Origin: Candidatus Thorarchaeota archaeon
GTDB taxonomy: Archaea; Asgardarchaeota; Thorarchaeia; Thorarchaeales; Thorarchaeaceae
Assembly (NCBI GenBank): GCA_011364985.1
Contig: RDOC01000004.1
Coordinates: 128,001 to 192,000 of the forward strand
Direction: 5' to 3'
DNA length: 64,000 nt
Positions 4,855 to 13,539 of this stretch are shown here, piece by piece (within the stretch, counting starts at the first letter, position 1; each line of letters opens with the position of its first letter). The position numbers and the translations under genes were made by a program. The notes beneath the pieces were generated by a model, which made no database searches, was not told the origin of the DNA, and saw only the letters and a list, made by a program, of their open reading frames with translations.

Positions 4855-4876
4855 TGGGGCCCGAAGGGGGAATCGA
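4855..4876 (-). pseudogene. 3' fragment of the disrupted original tRNA-His (T-loop to CCA)
   Basis: minus strand TCGATT-CCCCC-TTCGGGC-C-CCA; His discriminator C; pairs with the GCCCGAG acceptor strand of the 5' fragment at 13538. Confidence 0.8.
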
Positions 4877-4960
4877 GAATCAGACTCCCATTAGCTTGAG
4901 TTAGATTCTCCTTGTAAACAAACTTATCATCATATTTACATGTACTAAAATGATGATAAG
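4875..4960. repeat. two adjacent inverted repeats/hairpins at the boundary of the secondary insert
   Basis: GAGAATC(4875-4881)/GATTCTC(4904-4910) and perfect 11-bp CTTATCATCAT(4923-4933)/ATGATGATAAG(4950-4960). Confidence 0.75.
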
Positions 4961-4963
4961 AAA

Positions 4964-5194
4964 ATGGAGGCGGAATTGAAGGACATCTTGGAAAACGGAA
5001 AGGATTGGGAAAAAGCAAAAACGACTACCCCAGGACTATGGATTTGCAAAATGCCCGGAAAAGGCGACAACCCTCCGAGCCTTGTCATCATCATTAATCC
5101 AATTGAGAATATTAACCCGCCTACATCAAAGAAATTAGATAGAAGTAGATTCTTTGAAGTAACAATGTCAGTATATCGTTTCAACGATTCTTAA
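4964..5194 (+). CDS. hypothetical protein, probably a truncated member of a small archaeal 'GKDWE' family
   Basis: LKDILENGKDWEKAKTTTPGLWICKMPG...PSLVIIINP resembles a conserved archaeal hypothetical family (from memory); the C-terminus looks degenerate. Confidence 0.5.
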   Translation: MEAELKDILENGKDWEKAKTTTPGLWICKMPGKGDNPPSLVIIINPIENINPPTSKKLDRSRFFEVTMSVYRFNDS

Positions 5195-5304
5195 TGAGTA
5201 GTTTCGGCAATTTCGATACCACAGAGAAAAGAACTGACAGGTGGATAAGATGGATAAGCTAATAAGCCGCTGGCGAAAATCAGCTTCTTCGTTTGAGAAG
5301 CAAT

Positions 5305-5379
5305 GGCCCGAGTGGTGTACTGGCAGCATAAGAGATTGTGGCTCTCTTGAAACGGGTTCGATTCCCGTCTCGGGCCCCA
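5305..5379 (+). tRNA. tRNA-His(GUG), intact, G-1 and CCA encoded (replacement copy)
   Basis: G-GCCCGAG-TG-GTGT-ACTGGCA-GCAT-A-AGAGA-TTGTGGC-TCTCT-TGAA-ACGGG-TTCGATT-CCCGT-CTCGGGC-C-CCA. Confidence 0.96.
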
Positions 5380-5449
5380 TATTCCATCTCATCACGAGGC
5401 GTAGCAGTTTTTTGAGATAATGTCTTTTGTTATCCAGATGACATTAATA

Positions 5450-5540
5450 ATCCAACGATAGCAAAGGAGCCACAGCCGTTCATTTTCAATTGGACCTGAT
5501 TTTGCATCAGGCTGTCCCTCCAGGAACGGCACTGGATACT
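5450..5540 (-). ncRNA. candidate TnpB omegaRNA (3' scaffold plus guide)
   Basis: Overlaps the tnpB 3' end; GCCGTTC(5530-5524) pairs with GAACGGC(5481-5475) around hairpin CCTGAT-GCAAA-ATCAGG; ends in TGTGG followed by flank-derived CTCCTTTG...; 5' boundary unknown. Confidence 0.6.
5462..5469 (-). pseudogene. middle fragment of the disrupted tRNA-His (3' side of the anticodon stem)
   Basis: CTCCTTTG directly follows the element's right-end TGTGG; TCCTT pairs perfectly with AAGGA of the 5' fragment. Confidence 0.7.
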
Positions 5541-7672
5541 CTGTCTTGAACATGAATGATGTTTCGGGCTGCATTCACATCAGCATGGAAATGTTCGTCA
5601 CACAATGAACAATAGAAGTATTCTCCACCCCTTCTCTCGACGGTGGACTGCTCATCTGCAACACGAACACCACGCTCACCACATACATGGCAGGTCTGAG
5701 AAGTGAACCTTGGGTTCACTGTCCACACACTGTATGGTGAGTGTCCAAGTGACACTCGCATATATCTCACTGTGTCTATAATCTTCCCCCATAGATTCGA
5801 ACTTAGGTTGTACGACAGGTCCTTTGACCCACCATGAGCCTGAAAGCTCCTGAGATCCTCGAAGAAAATCTTCTTGACTCGATGCTCCTCACAGAACCAG
5901 ACGGTCTTTGATGCAATGATTCGGGCGATCTCACGGTCAAGACGACGGATCTTTCTCCATAGGGCTTTGATATGCCTGTCCTTCTTGAGGATGTGTTTTG
6001 GATATGACAGTCCTGATCGTTTGCGTCCCCAATTGTTCCTCTTCCTGTCTGTAACTGATTGCAGATCATAGGCCTGCTTTCTCAAGAACTCTCTCTTCTT
6101 CACAAGCTGGTCCACTCTCAACAGGAGTTCCCTGTATTCCTTCCCCTTCATCACCGAGAGCACCACGGGAACTCTAATTCCTCTGTCAACACCAGCCCTT
6201 GCTTCATACTCTCTTTCTCCAAGAACCTGCTGTATCAAGAAATCATCAGGAGCCAAGAAAGGAATCTGCAATGAAATTCTATTCCCCCTCAGAAGAAGTC
6301 GGGGAGGAGCGCTCCTCCTTGAACTCCTGAGTTCTGTGATCTTACTCTGAAGTTTGGTAGTTTCTTCTCCATCCTTACCCTTCTTCTGTTTCACTTTGTA
6401 GAGTCTGTGTGTCAGATGCTGTATCTCAATGGTGTTCATGAGCTGTTGATGCATATCTTCGAACATCGCCGCTCGAAACCTCAACCGCTGGGCACGATGA
6501 CAATCTCCATTGTCCTCTGCGTTCTGAGCCTTGGCTCCGTCTTTGATCGTGGCACTGGACATCCAATCCAGAAATCGAAAAGCCAAGGTCTTTCCCTTGT
6601 ACGGAGAACTCTCATGATGAGTGCCATTAATTCCTGGAGGGAGCTTGATGTGAAAGAGAATCTCATTCTTTCTCTCTGGGTCGACACTAAACCAGTACCC
6701 CTGTCCAGGCGAGTTCTCTGTACTTGCACTGAAATCCAGACTATGACTCCGAAGGCATGGAACAGAGAATAGGTATCCATTCTCTTTCCAAACCTCAAGT
6801 TTCCTTGCAGTAAGAAAGAGGATGCGTTCTTTCTCAGAAACAGAATCCTGAAGCAAGGATGCTACATACTTGCGTTGTCTTCCCCTCCATTGTATCTTGA
6901 CTCCTTGTTCCTCAAGAATGTGGTCATCCAGAGCTAGCCTGAGCTGTCTTAGGACTCCAAGGGAGTGATGAAAACCAGCCCCATCGTTCTTTGCTGAATC
7001 GCATGCATCTCTCACTCTGCGGATAAGATTGGAGGGAATATGCTTTCTTCTCAGAAGTTGAAGTGCATCAGCAGCAGACTCGCTTAGCACCTTGATCGCT
7101 GCATTGAAGAGCTGCCTTCGTGTCCAGTCTGCCAGAAGTGTACGTCCAGCGTGCTCAAGGGCATTGCGATAGAGTCGCTCAAAGCATAATGCCTGAATTT
7201 CCTCGTTCTGCTGGTAATTCAAATCCCTCATCTTCCTGAGAAGGGTATAAGCTCGCCCCCTGTATTCGGATAGTTGCTGACCAAGTGACTGCACACGGTC
7301 ATTATCCTTGTATATTCTTGCAAGCATGAGATTCACTACTTGGACATAGTTGTCAAAGAGAGAACCAAGAAGCTGCAAGTCAACCTCGTCCGCTTTCTTC
7401 CCAGAGCGCTTGGGTATCAGCGTAAATATCTCTTGATTTGGTTTTCTTGATGAAGAAAAGAAGGGGTCAGGTCTTCGATTTCTCCTCCTCTTTGCAATAA
7501 CTCTGTCAACAGAGTTCAGAACAAACGACTCGACAAGATAGGATTTCGATGGGGGTATTATAAAGTTGCCATCAATTTTCTCTTGCTTCTTCTGAGTTTG
7601 AGTGACAGAACCAGATTTCTGCTTCCAGTGATGGCGCTGGATTTCTTGCTTCATCATATGTTCCTGAGTCAT
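5507..7672 (-). CDS. tnpB: large TnpB/Cas12f-like RNA-guided RuvC endonuclease (721 aa)
   Basis: RuvC-I AGVDRG, RuvC-II FFEDL, NPRFTSQTCHVC...CSLC zinc finger, RuvC-III HADVNAARNI. Confidence 0.9.
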   Translation of the reverse strand: MTQEHMMKQEIQRHHWKQKSGSVTQTQKKQEKIDGNFIIPPSKSYLVESFVLNSVDRVIAKRRRNRRPDPFFSSSRKPNQEIFTLIPKRSGKKADEVDLQLLGSLFDNYVQVVNLMLARIYKDNDRVQSLGQQLSEYRGRAYTLLRKMRDLNYQQNEEIQALCFERLYRNALEHAGRTLLADWTRRQLFNAAIKVLSESAADALQLLRRKHIPSNLIRRVRDACDSAKNDGAGFHHSLGVLRQLRLALDDHILEEQGVKIQWRGRQRKYVASLLQDSVSEKERILFLTARKLEVWKENGYLFSVPCLRSHSLDFSASTENSPGQGYWFSVDPERKNEILFHIKLPPGINGTHHESSPYKGKTLAFRFLDWMSSATIKDGAKAQNAEDNGDCHRAQRLRFRAAMFEDMHQQLMNTIEIQHLTHRLYKVKQKKGKDGEETTKLQSKITELRSSRRSAPPRLLLRGNRISLQIPFLAPDDFLIQQVLGEREYEARAGVDRGIRVPVVLSVMKGKEYRELLLRVDQLVKKREFLRKQAYDLQSVTDRKRNNWGRKRSGLSYPKHILKKDRHIKALWRKIRRLDREIARIIASKTVWFCEEHRVKKIFFEDLRSFQAHGGSKDLSYNLSSNLWGKIIDTVRYMRVSLGHSPYSVWTVNPRFTSQTCHVCGERGVRVADEQSTVERRGGEYFYCSLCDEHFHADVNAARNIIHVQDRVSSAVPGGTA

Positions 7673-7679
7673 TGTTCTT

Positions 7680-7845
7680 CATCAGCAATATTAACTCAGA
7701 GTATTATAAAGTTATCAAGATTACTAATTTATTGTCTCTTATTTTTTCTAAAAAAGGGATATAAAGGCTTATAATTGAATTATATGTTATTTTGTTTACT
7801 AACGAAATTTAATTACATGTATGTCGTAGTGTTTTCTAAGGTATC
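7680..7845. promoter_or_regulatory. very AT-rich divergent promoter region between tnpB and the giant nuclease gene
   Basis: AT-rich tract with several TATA-like boxes (TTATAAA, GATATAAA, TTTATAA, TTATAT). Confidence 0.55.
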
Positions 7846-7848
7846 CCC

Positions 7849-10800
7849 ATGAGAGGTAGAAAGGGAAGAATAAACAGCCCAAGTGGCATCCTGAGTACTG
7901 CAATCTACATGGGTCTGGTCGCCCTGTGTCGAATCTCTAGAAACAGAGCAAGTAAGAAGACTAGAAAGTTCCACCGAAGTATCGAGAAGATGTGGGCATC
8001 AGCCCGAGAAGACTACAAGGTCCAAAAGGGCCTAAGACAGAATGACTTCTCGCCTATCAAAAATGCGGAACCAAACATGCGAGGACAATTTCTAAAATTT
8101 GTCTGGACAAGCACAAAACGATATGGAAACAAGGAGTTCAAGCGCGTCTATAGCTGGTTGGAAGGAACGGTTGGACCTCTCAATGCACTTCTGAACTATG
8201 CTGGAGCTTGCCTTCGAGACCTTGCTATGGTTCTATATCCTTTTCCACAGCCTCAGAGGTTCCAAATTCGTGAATGGCCGAACGGGACTAGAAGGATTCT
8301 CACTGAATCAGAAGCTAGTGAGATTACAAAGGATGGTACAGTAAAAGTCCACTGGCGGAGTGGGTATGAGAGGAATGGCAAGAATCCTCGAGTGTTACTC
8401 TCGCATCCAACCTTGCCTAGTCTGGATTTTGTAGACATGATACGGACACATTGCGTCGAGCTCTGTCGACAATGTTTTATCTATCACGTCCCTAGGACTG
8501 AGGCACATCGATACATACGCCTCCTTATTCATCGACTCAAGCCCTTCCTTGACTGGATCTACACAAATGGACAAGAGGGCCGTTCTGGGTTCAATCCTCA
8601 TGCTGACCATGAACTTAGGAAGATGGTCCTTGAGATAAGGTCACTCTATAGAAAAAGTGCTAAGACTAGTAGACGTATCTCGGGGCAGCATAACGAGAAA
8701 CCCATTGACCTCTCTCTTGAGAAAATCCGCCAGAAGGGCATCAAACAATTGGAAGAATCCACTGATGCAAAGGAAAGAAAGCTGTTACAGAAATTCCTAA
8801 ACTATATCGATACTGCATCAGGAGTCGTAGCACGACGTGATATCGAGAAACTAATAGGTCAGATATTGGCTCTTAGTTCACGAGAGGGTACTACTTGGCA
8901 CAGGGTCCTGCTCTCAGACCTCCACCATCCGAAGTCCCTTCGTCAGGTCATTTTTTCTGGGGATCAGCTGCTTACTTCATTCTCATCAATCCTAATAGTT
9001 GCGGAACTCCCTGTTGCAGGACATTCCGGACGAGTGGACCTGACCATTTTCATCAGAAGAGAGATTGCAGGAGAGGTCTTGTGGACTCCGGTGATGATCC
9101 TTGAGATTAAGACAAAGGCAACCTTTGATTTCAACCTCTACGGATTTGAACTCAAGCGAAAAAGAAAGCATGCTGTCACCCCTGCTTTCTACGCATGGAA
9201 ACGCACTATGACTGGGAATGAGTGGCAGAGCATTGTCAATGCAAGTCCCGACCCAGATGCCCTTAATCAACTTCGAGCCTATGAACAGGAGCTTATTGCA
9301 GAGTATAGACAGTTAGCCGCTCATGACCCAGCTCCGCCCTCCTCGCTTTGGAAAGGAGTCATTGTCTTGGATGCTGAAGCGAGTCCGGAGGACATATTTC
9401 CAGCCGTCCAGTTTCTTCTTGAAGATCTGAAGACTGGGCTCCTACAGCAGCTGATTGATCGAGATTCCTTCATTGCTGTTACACCAAAATCCCTAGCTTT
9501 AGAAGGGGACGATCCCAGGGTTTCTCTACTAGTTTCTCCAGCCAGGGGACCTACTGGATTACTCGGCGAGATGGAGCCTCCCACAAGTCTACCCATTGAC
9601 GATCCCTTTGCTGACCGAGAGAGCGACGACCGACTTCTAACACTCTATGTTTCCATTCCTTCTCCAACCTCCTCGGGAGTGACTGCAGCAAGACTCTCTC
9701 GAAACTGGCATCTCCTTCATCATATTCAGGAGTGTATTGAAACAATCTCCTCCATAGAAGATGTGGTGTGGCTAGACCTTATGGGGGATTACAAGAGCGA
9801 TGAGCTTGTCAAGAAACGATTCGGCTTGCATTCCTTGAGACAGGAGAAGATGATATCCAAGAAGTCCTTTCGGGAACTCACCTCAATCCTTCAATCCATC
9901 AGGTTTCTCGACCTGAGTCCATTCATGAACGGGATTCTTACCGAAGGCGCACAGGCATTTAGCAGCCTACTAAACCATATTGCAGCTACAATCCCAGCTG
10001 AGAATGGAGAACAGATCATCATCCTTGATGGATGGACAGACCTGCAAGATATGATTCCAAGACATCAACAGCACCTACTTCGTATCCTTGAGCGAAAACT
10101 GCTTCATGCGCTCCCTCAATCAAATGTTAACATCATCTGGATTGATGACGGTGTGCCCCATACTAAGATGAACCCAGACTACCAGCGTCAGTGCATCAGT
10201 CCTCTTAGGTATGACTCCCTCCGCAAGACTCATGTTGATGAGTTCATCTACAATATGCCAATACCCTCTCCTAGGTTCTGGTGGACAAATCCACAACATG
10301 ATGATATTCGAATCATTGTGCAAGACACCCCGACCAGAGAAAACCCCTGGAAGACGGCAATCTACGTTCCACAACTTTCGGGACTTGCAGAGAAGTTTAG
10401 AGGTCTTGCCAAGCGGGACAGAGTCATTGCTCCTAAGGAAATAGCACAGGATTTGGAAGGGAAGAAACCTATGTATGGACGAGATGTGACCCTGTGTCGC
10501 ATTCATCCATCTTCAGGTATTCTCTCAGAGGATGAACTCTCTGACCTTCTAGAAGATGCGCTCACTCTTGTGCCCAGTACCCTGAGAGAGAGGATGCCCC
10601 GACTAGAAGAAGAGTGTGAAGAAATCCAGATTTCTGAAGATGCTATCTGGCAATCTGTTATCCAGACGACTAGCTCTGCAAGCGGTTCTACGATGGAAGA
10701 AAGGATGAGAATTGATGTAACAAGACCACCCCCACGACCAGGGGGAACTGACCGATACATCGATGTTCTCATCAATGCTAAAAGAGAGCGGATTACAAGA

Positions 10801-13173
10801 TCTTGGTCCTATGACCAGACCCCCAAGCAATTTCCTGATGATGCAGATGAGTCTTATCTGTGTACATTCCCTCCAGAGTTGACGATCTCTGATGCAGTAG
10901 AGATCGACTCCATTGAAACCCGTGAACGAGAGCTTGGACGGCTCAAATCAGCAACCAGATACCTGAAGCAACAGACCTTCCTCTCACAGAAACTAAGGAA
11001 AATGTGCAGGAGGATTGAGAGGCATTGCAATCAGCAATTTGCTCTCATTAAAGACAACCCCTCACTGAAGACCAGTAACTTCTTCTTTAAAGCACTCAAA
11101 CAGGTCGAAACAATTATCCTAGAGGACACGCTAGGAGCAACTATCTGGGAAACACTCCGTTCATCTCGACAAGAACTACTTGATGTTCTGAACTCAGACA
11201 ACAGACAATTCTTAGAGGAGGTCATGAAGGAAACACCTGATGCTCTCCTGCTCTATGGCAATAATCTTGTCCTAGCAATTGTTTCTGTTCTCAAGGACAG
11301 CAACTTGTCTTTAGCAAAGCCTCTCTGGGAGTCTGTTGCTAGGTGGACATTATATCAGATAGGAATGAACAGTGACAATGATATCACAAAGACAGTCTAT
11401 AGCTTTCGAGCAATTCTCTCCAACCTGAGAGCGCGCATCAATACTCTTTCGCATCTCAATCTCCCTGAGATGATTCTGGAACAAGAGCAGGTTGGTGCGA
11501 TCATTTGGATGGAGTCTGAGGCCAGGTATGATGCACTTCTTCTAATATCTCATGATAATACTGGCTTTCTAATTGGCATTATTGAGGGACTAAACAATAG
11601 ATGGATTCCAGCAAAATGGCACTCCTGTAAGACAACTCCCCAGCAGTTAAAACACCATGTGCAGAACGCTCTCACATCCACAGATAGGACACCTGTTATC
11701 ACGACCACGGTTAGAGATTTGAGTGTCCTCCTGATACCTGCGTTGACCGAGGATGATGAACTCGTCTGGAGCTGCTTCTCTCTGAAGCATGGTAGACCCA
11801 GCGGACGACGAAACAGTATTCCATGGATAAAGCTAGAACCTGCTGAATCTCTGGCAGCGCCCAGCCACGTACCTGAGATCCCAGACGAAATTGACGAAAC
11901 TCTCCGGAAGATAATTCGGGTCAAGCACAGCATCACTCCTGTAAAGCTCCTCGTTGGTATAGATGAGGAGCTTGAGGTCTACGAAGTTCAGTTAACGGGC
12001 GAAGGCATTGAAGAACGACGTAAGTTCAGACGAACCAGAGAAGCGGTTCGATTTCTCAGAACTCCAATCAGAGAGGGAGTGGGGTATCGGTGGCAGGGAC
12101 AGACTCTCACTTGGGACCATCGCAAAGATATCGATTATGGCGATTCACTCTCTTTTCTCAGACCTCTTATTCATCGGAGCAAGTTCTACCCCGATATCTA
12201 TCATTATCCAAAGACATGCAAGGACCTCCTTACCGCAAGCAAAGGACATGAGATAATCATGGTCATCAGTCAAGAGGGACCGACATACCGGGTCAAGTTT
12301 CAGGATCTCCCAGACCAATCTGCTCTGAGAGAACTGGAGATAGCGGAACTGGACATCCATGCACTGGGCCTACTTGCAGAGTGCAAGGAACTCTTTGACC
12401 TCGGAAGCAGGACTTGGCACCCATTAGTGCTAGATGTCAACGCTATCATGGACCTCTGGTTCCCCAAGCTTCATGAATACCCCCGGCTAATTGAGGCGAT
12501 TCAGGCCGCTGATGTTAACGAGTTCAACTGGTCAAGAGAAACATGGTTCATAGAGATTAGGCTTTGGAGAAATGAACTGAGATGGTGCATCATGTCGAAG
12601 ACAACAGGACTGCCTTGGATGAACAGGGAATTCACATATATCCTTACTCTTGGAAGAGAGCCTGATAAGGAGTTGGAGGCTTTCAAGGAGGTGGTCACGG
12701 CCATTGTTCAGCCAGAGCATCTCTGCAATCTGGATGACGAGCTTGAAACGTACAAGGTGACACTCAAGGAGAGGTATAGTGAATACCTTCGGACTGTCAG
12801 TGTGGAAGACGCGGATGAGAGAAAAGCTGAAGATGAGCTGGAGAAAGCTGCTGCTATAGGCGCTCCATGGGAGAGAATAGCGTTCAGGTATAGCGGAATG
12901 AAACTCAGGAGAATAAAAAGAAACACCGTGGTTGTTGTTTCCTTGGTGTCCGGCGAAGAAGAAGCAGAGGTGTACGTGGTGAGGGATGTCCAAAGGTATG
13001 TGAATGAATCTCGGTCAGCAGGTGCAATCCACTCAGAACCTGTTGATGATGAGGTGAAGGAGAGTCTTGCAGACTATGAGTTTGAGAAGGGCGAGCTTGA
13101 AAGAATCAAGGCGGCTGTCAGGAAAGTGTTGGAGGAGGAAGGAGTCAGGTTTTCTAATGAACAGGCCTTTTAG
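7849..13173 (+). CDS. giant (1774 aa) protein with a PD-(D/E)XK nuclease domain and a degenerate P-loop-like domain
   Basis: VAELPV...GRVDLTIF...ILEIKTK...NQLRAY...KGVIV nuclease motifs; SPTSSGVT, VVWLDL and IIILDGW resemble RecA-like Walker remnants. Confidence 0.75.
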   Translation: MRGRKGRINSPSGILSTAIYMGLVALCRISRNRASKKTRKFHRSIEKMWASAREDYKVQKGLRQNDFSPIKNAEPNMRGQFLKFVWTSTKRYGNKEFKRVYSWLEGTVGPLNALLNYAGACLRDLAMVLYPFPQPQRFQIREWPNGTRRILTESEASEITKDGTVKVHWRSGYERNGKNPRVLLSHPTLPSLDFVDMIRTHCVELCRQCFIYHVPRTEAHRYIRLLIHRLKPFLDWIYTNGQEGRSGFNPHADHELRKMVLEIRSLYRKSAKTSRRISGQHNEKPIDLSLEKIRQKGIKQLEESTDAKERKLLQKFLNYIDTASGVVARRDIEKLIGQILALSSREGTTWHRVLLSDLHHPKSLRQVIFSGDQLLTSFSSILIVAELPVAGHSGRVDLTIFIRREIAGEVLWTPVMILEIKTKATFDFNLYGFELKRKRKHAVTPAFYAWKRTMTGNEWQSIVNASPDPDALNQLRAYEQELIAEYRQLAAHDPAPPSSLWKGVIVLDAEASPEDIFPAVQFLLEDLKTGLLQQLIDRDSFIAVTPKSLALEGDDPRVSLLVSPARGPTGLLGEMEPPTSLPIDDPFADRESDDRLLTLYVSIPSPTSSGVTAARLSRNWHLLHHIQECIETISSIEDVVWLDLMGDYKSDELVKKRFGLHSLRQEKMISKKSFRELTSILQSIRFLDLSPFMNGILTEGAQAFSSLLNHIAATIPAENGEQIIILDGWTDLQDMIPRHQQHLLRILERKLLHALPQSNVNIIWIDDGVPHTKMNPDYQRQCISPLRYDSLRKTHVDEFIYNMPIPSPRFWWTNPQHDDIRIIVQDTPTRENPWKTAIYVPQLSGLAEKFRGLAKRDRVIAPKEIAQDLEGKKPMYGRDVTLCRIHPSSGILSEDELSDLLEDALTLVPSTLRERMPRLEEECEEIQISEDAIWQSVIQTTSSASGSTMEERMRIDVTRPPPRPGGTDRYIDVLINAKRERITRSWSYDQTPKQFPDDADESYLCTFPPELTISDAVEIDSIETRERELGRLKSATRYLKQQTFLSQKLRKMCRRIERHCNQQFALIKDNPSLKTSNFFFKALKQVETIILEDTLGATIWETLRSSRQELLDVLNSDNRQFLEEVMKETPDALLLYGNNLVLAIVSVLKDSNLSLAKPLWESVARWTLYQIGMNSDNDITKTVYSFRAILSNLRARINTLSHLNLPEMILEQEQVGAIIWMESEARYDALLLISHDNTGFLIGIIEGLNNRWIPAKWHSCKTTPQQLKHHVQNALTSTDRTPVITTTVRDLSVLLIPALTEDDELVWSCFSLKHGRPSGRRNSIPWIKLEPAESLAAPSHVPEIPDEIDETLRKIIRVKHSITPVKLLVGIDEELEVYEVQLTGEGIEERRKFRRTREAVRFLRTPIREGVGYRWQGQTLTWDHRKDIDYGDSLSFLRPLIHRSKFYPDIYHYPKTCKDLLTASKGHEIIMVISQEGPTYRVKFQDLPDQSALRELEIAELDIHALGLLAECKELFDLGSRTWHPLVLDVNAIMDLWFPKLHEYPRLIEAIQAADVNEFNWSRETWFIEIRLWRNELRWCIMSKTTGLPWMNREFTYILTLGREPDKELEAFKEVVTAIVQPEHLCNLDDELETYKVTLKERYSEYLRTVSVEDADERKAEDELEKAAAIGAPWERIAFRYSGMKLRRIKRNTVVVVSLVSGEEEAEVYVVRDVQRYVNESRSAGAIHSEPVDDEVKESLADYEFEKGELERIKAAVRKVLEEEGVRFSNEQAF

Positions 13174-13330
13174 ACTAATGAGCACACAACTCGTAGACCC
13201 TTCATGAGAAGAAGGCGATGAGAGATATCATGTCAGAAACCAGCTCCTTCTGTGGACTCTGCTGTTCTGGTATATAGAGAATCTCAACACCCACTCCATA
13301 GTCCTTGAGGATCCCTAGAAGAATGCTGGT
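13160..13330 (-). pseudogene. tnpA: IS607 TnpA serine recombinase C-terminal remnant
   Basis: Manual translation ILLGILKDYGVGVEILYIPEQQSPQKELVSDMISLIAFFS*RVYELCAH*SKR matches the IS607 pattern YGVEIEV...SPEEELVEDLISIITSFSARLYGxRSHK; stops at 13202-13204 and 13175-13177. Confidence 0.8.
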
Positions 13331-13502
13331 GACCTTGACATCCTACTCGGTGTTTAGGACTGACCTAGTCTTTAAAGCAGTCATCTTACCCTTTGTCAAG
13401 AAAAAAAGCAGTGTTTTTTTCTCAAGGATTTTCAGTGGGAAGCTAATATTGAACATACGGAAACACGAGCGAAGAACGAGGTGAGATACATGCAGAGATT
13501 AG

Positions 13503-13539
13503 CCACAATCCTTTATGTTACCATTACACCACTCGGGCC
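13503..13539 (-). pseudogene. 5' half of the disrupted original tRNA-His(GUG)
   Basis: G-GCCCGAG-TG-GTGT-AATGGTA-ACAT-A-AAGGA-TTGTGG; upstream context (CTAATAAG...GCTTCTT...CAATGGCCCGAG) is homologous to that of the intact copy. Confidence 0.88.

Follow-up and report, generated by a model that had tools for sequence, protein, structure and literature searches.

A diverged Cas1-type protein as the likely transposase of a TnpB-linked element in a Thorarchaeota tRNA-His gene

Loci combining a diverged Cas1 (aCas1) with TnpB are listed by Altae-Tran et al. 2023 (PMC10691335, citing Makarova et al. 2020 CRISPR J 3:156) for two Asgard groups, Cas1H-Asgard-1 and Cas1H-Asgard-2, with aCas1 proposed as transposase. 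The family is thus known by computation, and a literature search retrieved no experimental study of aCas1-TnpB elements. The element described here shares with these loci the Asgard host, a diverged Cas1 beside TnpB, two TnpB groups (clades T1 and T2 below) and flanking repeats (here a 7-nt direct repeat plus inverted tRNA pieces). The GTTCACTCA motif behind tnpB of the published loci occurs in the T2 relatives and is absent from the T1 element studied here; PMC10691335 is silent on which groups carry it. However, the putative guide was placed upstream of the motif in the published loci, whereas the matching guides reported here lie downstream of the scaffold end. The 7-nt duplication, the tRNA and 16S targets, the recoded copies and the self-promoter guide go beyond the main text of PMC10691335, in which the term tRNA has 0 occurrences.

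Casposons (PMC9939771) likewise use a Cas1-fold integrase as transposase, duplicate their target and frequently insert at tRNA genes, but they carry PolB and terminal inverted repeats and generate a 15-nt duplication, whereas our element has neither PolB nor such repeats and duplicates 7 nt. Moreover, unlike casposase, aCas1 is matched in the helical catalytic domain only, is fused to nuclease and RecA-fold domains and has TnpB as partner. IS607 elements (10.1101/2023.11.20.567912) resemble the T1 elements in a scaffold and right end finishing in GG, in G-rich left flanks, in a guide derived from the right flank and in a serine-recombinase gene, tnpA, which six relatives possess and of which a remnant persists here; yet this tnpA is dead, the gene is absent from 46 of 53 loci, and a 7-nt duplication as well as a 5.3-kb antisense aCas1 gene are present. 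Targeting of the empty allele by an RNA-guided nuclease is also a feature of IS200/IS605 TnpB homing (PMC10055086), and synthetic Cleave-and-Rescue drives, according to the accessible part of PMC10592828, similarly target an essential gene and provide a recoded copy in cis. Compared with homing and with the drives as presented there, we deal with a natural archaeal element that has tRNA and rRNA targets, introns as a form of recoding, and a function that we infer. Finally, type V-K Tn7-like CAST, as far as covered by the accessible part of 10.1101/2021.02.06.429022, also combine a TnpB-related effector with short guides matching the tRNA at the insertion site; in contrast to these, TnsB, TnsC and TniQ are missing here, RuvC is not dead but either intact or rearranged, and the tRNA gene is disrupted and replaced instead of being spared.

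The window, i.e. the whole stretch of DNA analysed, comprises 64,000 nucleotides of a Candidatus Thorarchaeota archaeon (GenBank assembly GCA_011364985.1, contig RDOC01000004.1, positions 128,001 to 192,000 of the forward strand). An earlier note, made from the letters alone, had singled out an open reading frame with nuclease and Walker-like motifs, which were indeed found at the codons claimed. The protein is organized as follows (window coordinates).

7849..13173, plus strand: aCas1 multidomain protein, 1774 aa; reading frame confirmed at these coordinates
7870..8616, plus strand: Cas1-like helical catalytic domain, aa 8-256; fold match and invariant residues
8887..9444, plus strand: PD-(D/E)XK nuclease of the RecB/Cas4-like motif type, aa about 347-532; conserved motifs and Atlas leads
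9622..10404, plus strand: RecA/KaiC-fold domain, aa 592-852; degenerate Walker A and B
10876..11418, plus strand: candidate second Cas1-like helical domain, catalytically dead, aa about 1010-1190
11419..13170, plus strand: several well-modelled alpha/beta domains with no clear match; length varies among homologues

This protein is likely, albeit far from certainly, a very diverged Cas1-type integrase and the transposase of a TnpB-linked mobile element in Thorarchaeota. Residues E74, N112, H186, D196 and R199 are invariant within the Cas1-like domain in the homologue alignment, and these catalytic-type residues rank among the best-conserved positions of aCas1. The Cas1 relationship of aa 8-256 was detected by fold only and comprises the helical catalytic domain, no match to the N-terminal beta-sandwich of Cas1 being found in aCas1. 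Pfam, NCBIfam, PADLOC and PDB sequence searches returned no name for the 1774-aa protein, and an ESM Atlas search with aa 8-345 gave no usable match. In the nuclease domain, the motif residues E386, D397, E/D419, K421, Q474 and Y478 are conserved among homologues and the motifs are intact, as the earlier note had proposed; its call of an inactive RecA-like ATPase agrees with the RecA/KaiC fold, which probably lacks ATPase activity as judged from the degenerate Walker motifs. Assignment of aa about 1010-1190 as a second, dead Cas1-like domain is tentative, and hhalign gave a probability of <3% for its relationship to the first.

The protein had also been taken for an orphan, which it is not: four copies of the aCas1 gene are present in the source genome, and matches were obtained in 20 of 36 same-family genomes of a first sample; one genome has 16. 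In a sample of the phylum, aCas1 was detected in 17/26 genomes of its own family and in 1/124 outside it, the latter from one other family. Among named relatives, Candidatus Thorarchaeota MAGs are the closest. A profile of the N-terminal domain, searched against 1.84 billion proteins, retrieved 140 clusters, of which the long ones are mostly 1400-2350 aa in size.

Genomic context was evaluated for 53 aCas1 loci cut from relatives, 52 of which include upstream sequence. A divergently transcribed TnpB lies beside aCas1 in 52/52 of these and in three of the most distant homologues checked; accordingly, no locus with upstream sequence contained aCas1 without TnpB, and none of the loci was seen to place aCas1 inside a cluster of defence genes. 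The sole other recurrent protein gene is the IS607-type tnpA (6/53 loci); in these six IS607-like elements, which have conserved left ends, the aCas1 gene is located antisense between tnpA and tnpB. Neither Cas2 nor regular repeats recurred in the aCas1 loci, no TnsB, TnsC or TniQ gene is present within the mapped element (4877-13500), and this interval leaves no space for a family B DNA polymerase, which is not a recurrent cargo of the relatives either. The TnpBs beside aCas1 fall into two clades with about 18% identity to each other: T1 (about 720 aa, canonical RuvC), to which the TnpB of the window belongs, and T2 (about 560-620 aa, RuvC-II E to G). On the aCas1 tree, a quick IQ-TREE run with aa 1-920 of 49 near-full-length copies, T1 and T2 TnpBs switch at least six times. 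A reading of the T2 TnpBs as dead was dropped, because Altae-Tran et al. (2023, PMC10691335) interpret the E-to-G change as a rearrangement of the site, which is probably active, and because T2 retains a conserved Glu before the Zn finger.

Comparison with same-genus genomes and with a contig of the source sample placed the ends of the element within a tRNA-His gene.

4877..13500, no strand: whole insertion, 8624 bp, replacing 14 nt (nt 40-53) of the host tRNA-His gene
13501..13539, minus strand: host tRNA-His nt 1-39 in native promoter context; 13501-13507 is one copy of the 7-nt duplication
4855..4876, minus strand: host tRNA-His nt 54-75, the 3' remainder; identical to native alleles of the genus
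5305..5379, plus strand: complete inverted tRNA-His(GTG) with a recoded anticodon stem; guide positions 9 and 10 are mismatched
4964..5194, plus strand: 76-aa open reading frame in the putative rescue cassette; no Pfam match
13166..13324, minus strand: IS607-type serine-recombinase tnpA remnant, truncated, 53 codons, with stops

Genomes of the same genus possess an intact tRNA-His gene with the same flanks, promoter context and neighbours, and a contig from the source sample (depth 13; element about 21) joins position 4876 to 13501 via 14 other letters that complete tRNA-His. This empty allele may stem from a related strain (one base differs in the 5' half, and there is one guide mismatch). 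The internal recoded copy is the only intact tRNA-His in the assembly, which is 74% complete, and the region upstream of it resembles that of the element-linked tRNA-His in loci L071 and L113. The same layout of a broken plus an inverted tRNA-His recurs in the elements L071 and L047, which have a T2 TnpB and a distant aCas1. The 76-aa reading frame is perhaps a gene fragment. A 46-nt inverted repeat (5298/13546), considered as transposon ends, proved to consist of two tRNA-His 5' halves, and no circle junction of the element was found in the source contigs, a data type that drops rare forms. As a side observation, the window also harbours an intron-containing tRNA-Leu-like gene at 2550-2670 on the minus strand (L087:1551-1668), which ARAGORN missed at defaults.

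The remainder of the element is occupied by TnpB and its putative RNAs.

5507..7672, minus strand: TnpB, 721 aa, clade T1; RuvC D-E-D motifs and Zn finger intact
5475..5560, minus strand: 3' part of the omegaRNA scaffold, which is the inner right end, IS607-like and ending in a GG core
5462..5474, minus strand: 13-nt guide equal to host-type tRNA-His nt 33-45; positions 5468-5474, the first 7 nt of the guide, make up one of the two duplication copies
7555..7567, minus strand: second, self-directed 13-nt guide, located at the end of an omegaRNA-like paralogue overlapping the 5' region of tnpB
7701..7718, minus strand: target of the self guide, a TATA-like box upstream of tnpB, with TTGAT as candidate TAM

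TnpB matches Pfam PF07282 (E 7e-13) and NCBIfam guided_TnpB (E 4e-19, below the cut-off of that model). The scaffold end is conserved behind all 15 T1 TnpBs shown; the extent of the omegaRNA was delineated by conservation only, and the fold of this region is no more stable than that of shuffles (z 0.01). The guide matches the tRNA-His allele of another genome at 13/13 positions and restores pairing of the broken 5' half. From the outer junction (nt 53/54) to the TAM, i.e. the guide start, the distance is exactly 21 nt; ISDra2 TnpB is known to cut the target strand 21 nt from the TAM and to lose cutting upon double mismatches at positions 1-12 (PMC10097598). The upstream omegaRNA paralogue resembles the downstream RNA with a score of 89 as compared to a shuffle maximum of 78. 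Self guides were detected in 34/35 T2 loci and in at least seven T1 loci; in T2, the RNA upstream of tnpB carries a 10-15-nt guide identical to the element's own TATA box behind a TT(A/C)AT motif (34/35 loci), and self guide and promoter covary across elements.

The element core (5475-13500) is flanked by a 7-nt target duplication (5468-5474 and 13501-13507). When the 7-mer behind the right end was searched for within 700 nt beyond the large gene, it was found repeated in 6 of 12 testable T1 elements as compared to a cross-locus rate of 0.068 (binomial P about 6e-5, with related elements not being independent), and for L070 the duplication was confirmed against an empty site from L075. Elements without intact tnpA exhibit it in 5/7 cases as compared to 1/5 with intact tnpA; IS607 TnpA makes no target duplication (10.1101/2023.11.20.567912). 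In 9/29 cases, a guide defined by motif alone matched an element-free tRNA or 16S reference over 14 nt with no more than one mismatch, versus 0/116 for shuffles, and each of the matching guides sits beside that same gene type. About 22 of the 53 loci are located at a tRNA or 16S gene, and in about half of all loci no RNA gene is recognisable as the target. Of 18 guide/target cases picked by hand, 13 have a linked copy that fits the guide worse than element-free alleles do, owing to recoding or to an intron inside the target, while five show no escape (L047, L048, L046, L086 and L056 g2); as related elements are not independent, these counts, like those for duplication and guide matches, overstate significance. 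The Lys elements carry recoded tRNAs and have guides resembling the common native allele, and the 16S genes adjoining L056, L058 and L060 contain short introns inside the targeted stretches. One L066 guide matches an intron-bearing 16S allele of another genome, which suggests an arms race between elements. Terminal inverted repeats were absent from the inner ends of six mapped elements, no conserved left end was found, and near-identical copies at different sites were not found (best pairs 87-88%), so that these comparisons lend no support to recent aCas1 transposition.

Short hairpin-type introns were noted within guide-matched stretches of Thorarchaeota 16S (L056, L058, L060, L066; L092-L094). 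In addition, mini-arrays were noted behind T2 tnpB, in which hairpin-plus-guide units occur two to four times and each holds 12-17 nt derived from 16S or tRNA-Asp, both orientations being represented.

L058:1460-1600: mini-array (oriented locus)
L060:4828-4946: mini-array (oriented locus)
L056:3960-4030: mini-array (oriented locus)
L088:4730-4810: mini-array (oriented locus)

Guides of L062, L073, L078, L081 and L057 resemble the start of a neighbouring mvhD-like gene, and protein-coding genes may thus be targets, too.

Taken together, our data tend to favour a joint model in which aCas1 integration of the element proceeds with a stagger of 7 nt, the element ends are readied by the nuclease, and the right flank guides TnpB to cut empty alleles. 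Cas4 makes or trims donor ends for Cas1, and the PD-(D/E)XK domain may act in an analogous manner, while the Cas1 domain would join the element ends to target DNA with the 7-nt stagger and the dead RecA fold along with the C-terminal domains may bind DNA or scaffold the complex. Since whatever lies behind the right end is taken up as the omegaRNA guide, TnpB would cut empty alleles and thereby drive retention or homing, an activity shown for IS605 (PMC10055086) and IS607 (10.1101/2023.11.20.567912). Selection would retain about 13-16 nt of the guide and couple a resistant tRNA to it. With an essential RNA gene as target, the element may acquire a guide-resistant copy and become a cleave-and-rescue unit: at the locus studied here, TnpB would cut empty alleles and the recoded tRNA-His copy would rescue the cell. 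The second guide would bind the element's own promoter. Besides the Cas1 fold with its conserved residues, the constant pairing with TnpB, the rarity of serine tnpA, the 7-nt duplication and the empty allele, it speaks in favour of this model that the guide matches the host-type allele and that the rescue copy deviates at guide positions 9-10, within the range in which ISDra2 is sensitive to double mismatches. Against it stand the negative results on inverted repeats, left ends and near-identical copies, the five cases lacking escape, the loci at which an RNA-gene target is not recognisable, the possible origin of the empty allele from a related strain, the IS607-like right end of T1, the six elements with an intact serine recombinase and the TAMs, which agree only in part (AGGAT at the tRNA-His target has just three bases in common with TTGAT at the self target). 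Moreover, the self guide also has 13 nt and should not cut, implying that guides of this length may only bind.

The steps of this model may be tied together differently. A bolder version, which we regard as doubtful, envisions a programmable gene drive: a single-chain Cas1/Cas4-like/pseudo-RecA integrase, positioned by TnpB-omegaRNA or using its break, would insert kilobases into essential tRNA and rRNA loci and supply or select guide-resistant copies. In a CAST-like scenario, target-bound TnpB-omegaRNA would recruit aCas1 for insertion at a fixed position of the protospacer. The invariant pairing of aCas1 with TnpB would fit, as would left junctions 7-9 nt into the guide match (window, L063, L067, L068, L070, L080), guide matches that end after 13-17 nt and the several guide units per gene in some elements (16S: L056/L058/L060/L066; tRNA-Asp: L088). 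However, duplication plus flank yields the same geometry in an unguided manner, the at least six swaps between TnpB clades of about 18% identity argue against a co-evolved interface, and at many unrelated sites the guide is simply the flank, making such guided integration unlikely.

Cas1 and Cas4 form the spacer-acquisition pair of CRISPR, and aCas1 with its Cas4-like nuclease might correspondingly be an adaptation module that writes short guides behind the scaffold, the element itself moving by TnpA-S in trans or by TnpB-driven homing. This agrees with the non-conserved left end and with multi-guide arrays holding 12-17-nt 16S pieces in both orientations, one of which (L066) fits an intron-bearing escape allele. 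We nonetheless judge it quite improbable: Cas2 or regular repeats are not recurrent in the loci, most elements have one host guide running on into the flank, and a 7-nt host duplication at both ends is the expected trace of whole-element integration. The idea that the protein is a defence or toxin cargo of IS607-like elements, with a nuclease and a dead NTPase sensor, is compatible with the intact nuclease, the variable C-terminus, the antisense position between tnpA and tnpB in six elements and the Schlafen or helicase/PLD cargo of some, but appears highly unlikely given the conserved Cas1 catalytic-type residues, the constant association with TnpB where upstream sequence is present and the absence of the gene from defence clusters. 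A defence effector or nucleic-acid sensor had been the earlier note's first suggestion, which these data do not support: PADLOC yielded 0 matches for the query and isolated ones with E about 0.01 in single homologues, and the gene is multi-copy, patchy and found at insertion junctions. Its domain calls held, and the integration or processing role it had offered as an alternative is supported, with the N-terminus now read, from its fold match and conserved catalytic-type residues, as a putative Cas1-type integrase domain.

Returning to the joint model of aCas1 insertion and TnpB cutting, this locus contributes mapped ends together with an empty allele, a 7-nt duplication, the geometry of the cut site and the pattern of 16S introns. 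Mapped ends, empty allele, a candidate TAM from the self target, a guide and a pair of sensitive and resistant targets render the mechanism directly testable. How CRISPR adaptation (Cas1-Cas4) and type V effectors (TnpB) were first combined is a question to which a Cas1-fold transposase lacking both PolB and inverted repeats is relevant. If the rescue logic holds true, the element would be nature's equivalent of the synthetic cleave-and-rescue drives, and some tRNA and 16S introns of Thorarchaeota may be explained in this way; if the gene-drive reading did, it would represent RNA-guided integration by Cas1 independent of Tn7 and a driver of tRNA and rRNA intron gain in Asgard archaea.

Several related loci deserve mention in their own right. 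Three further elements are present in the source genome (C21:47404-54828, C16:48803-58695 and C15:184471-189284, the last with about 176000-177100): one has an intact IS607 tnpA, one is located at tRNA-Gly and carries a 981-aa Schlafen AlbA_2 cargo, and one, at tRNA-Asp, is broken and lies close to a second, decayed copy. Genes for a PLD nuclease and an SF1 helicase, a possible defence cargo, follow a distant aCas1-TnpB locus (L091:12923-17669), and a 2353-aa distant homologue with C-terminal TPR repeats (L089:2464-9525, GCA_001940725.1) adjoins a TnpB split into two reading frames. tRNA-His is a hotspot in the family, as seen in several genomes from 5' halves that break off at nt 33-39 or from 3' ends present in duplicate (L109/L187 in G015:C11; L190 in G081:C162; L104, L191, L193). 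Genome G081, in which aCas1 was not found, contains two broken tRNA-His halves and an intron-bearing copy much like the replacement in the window.
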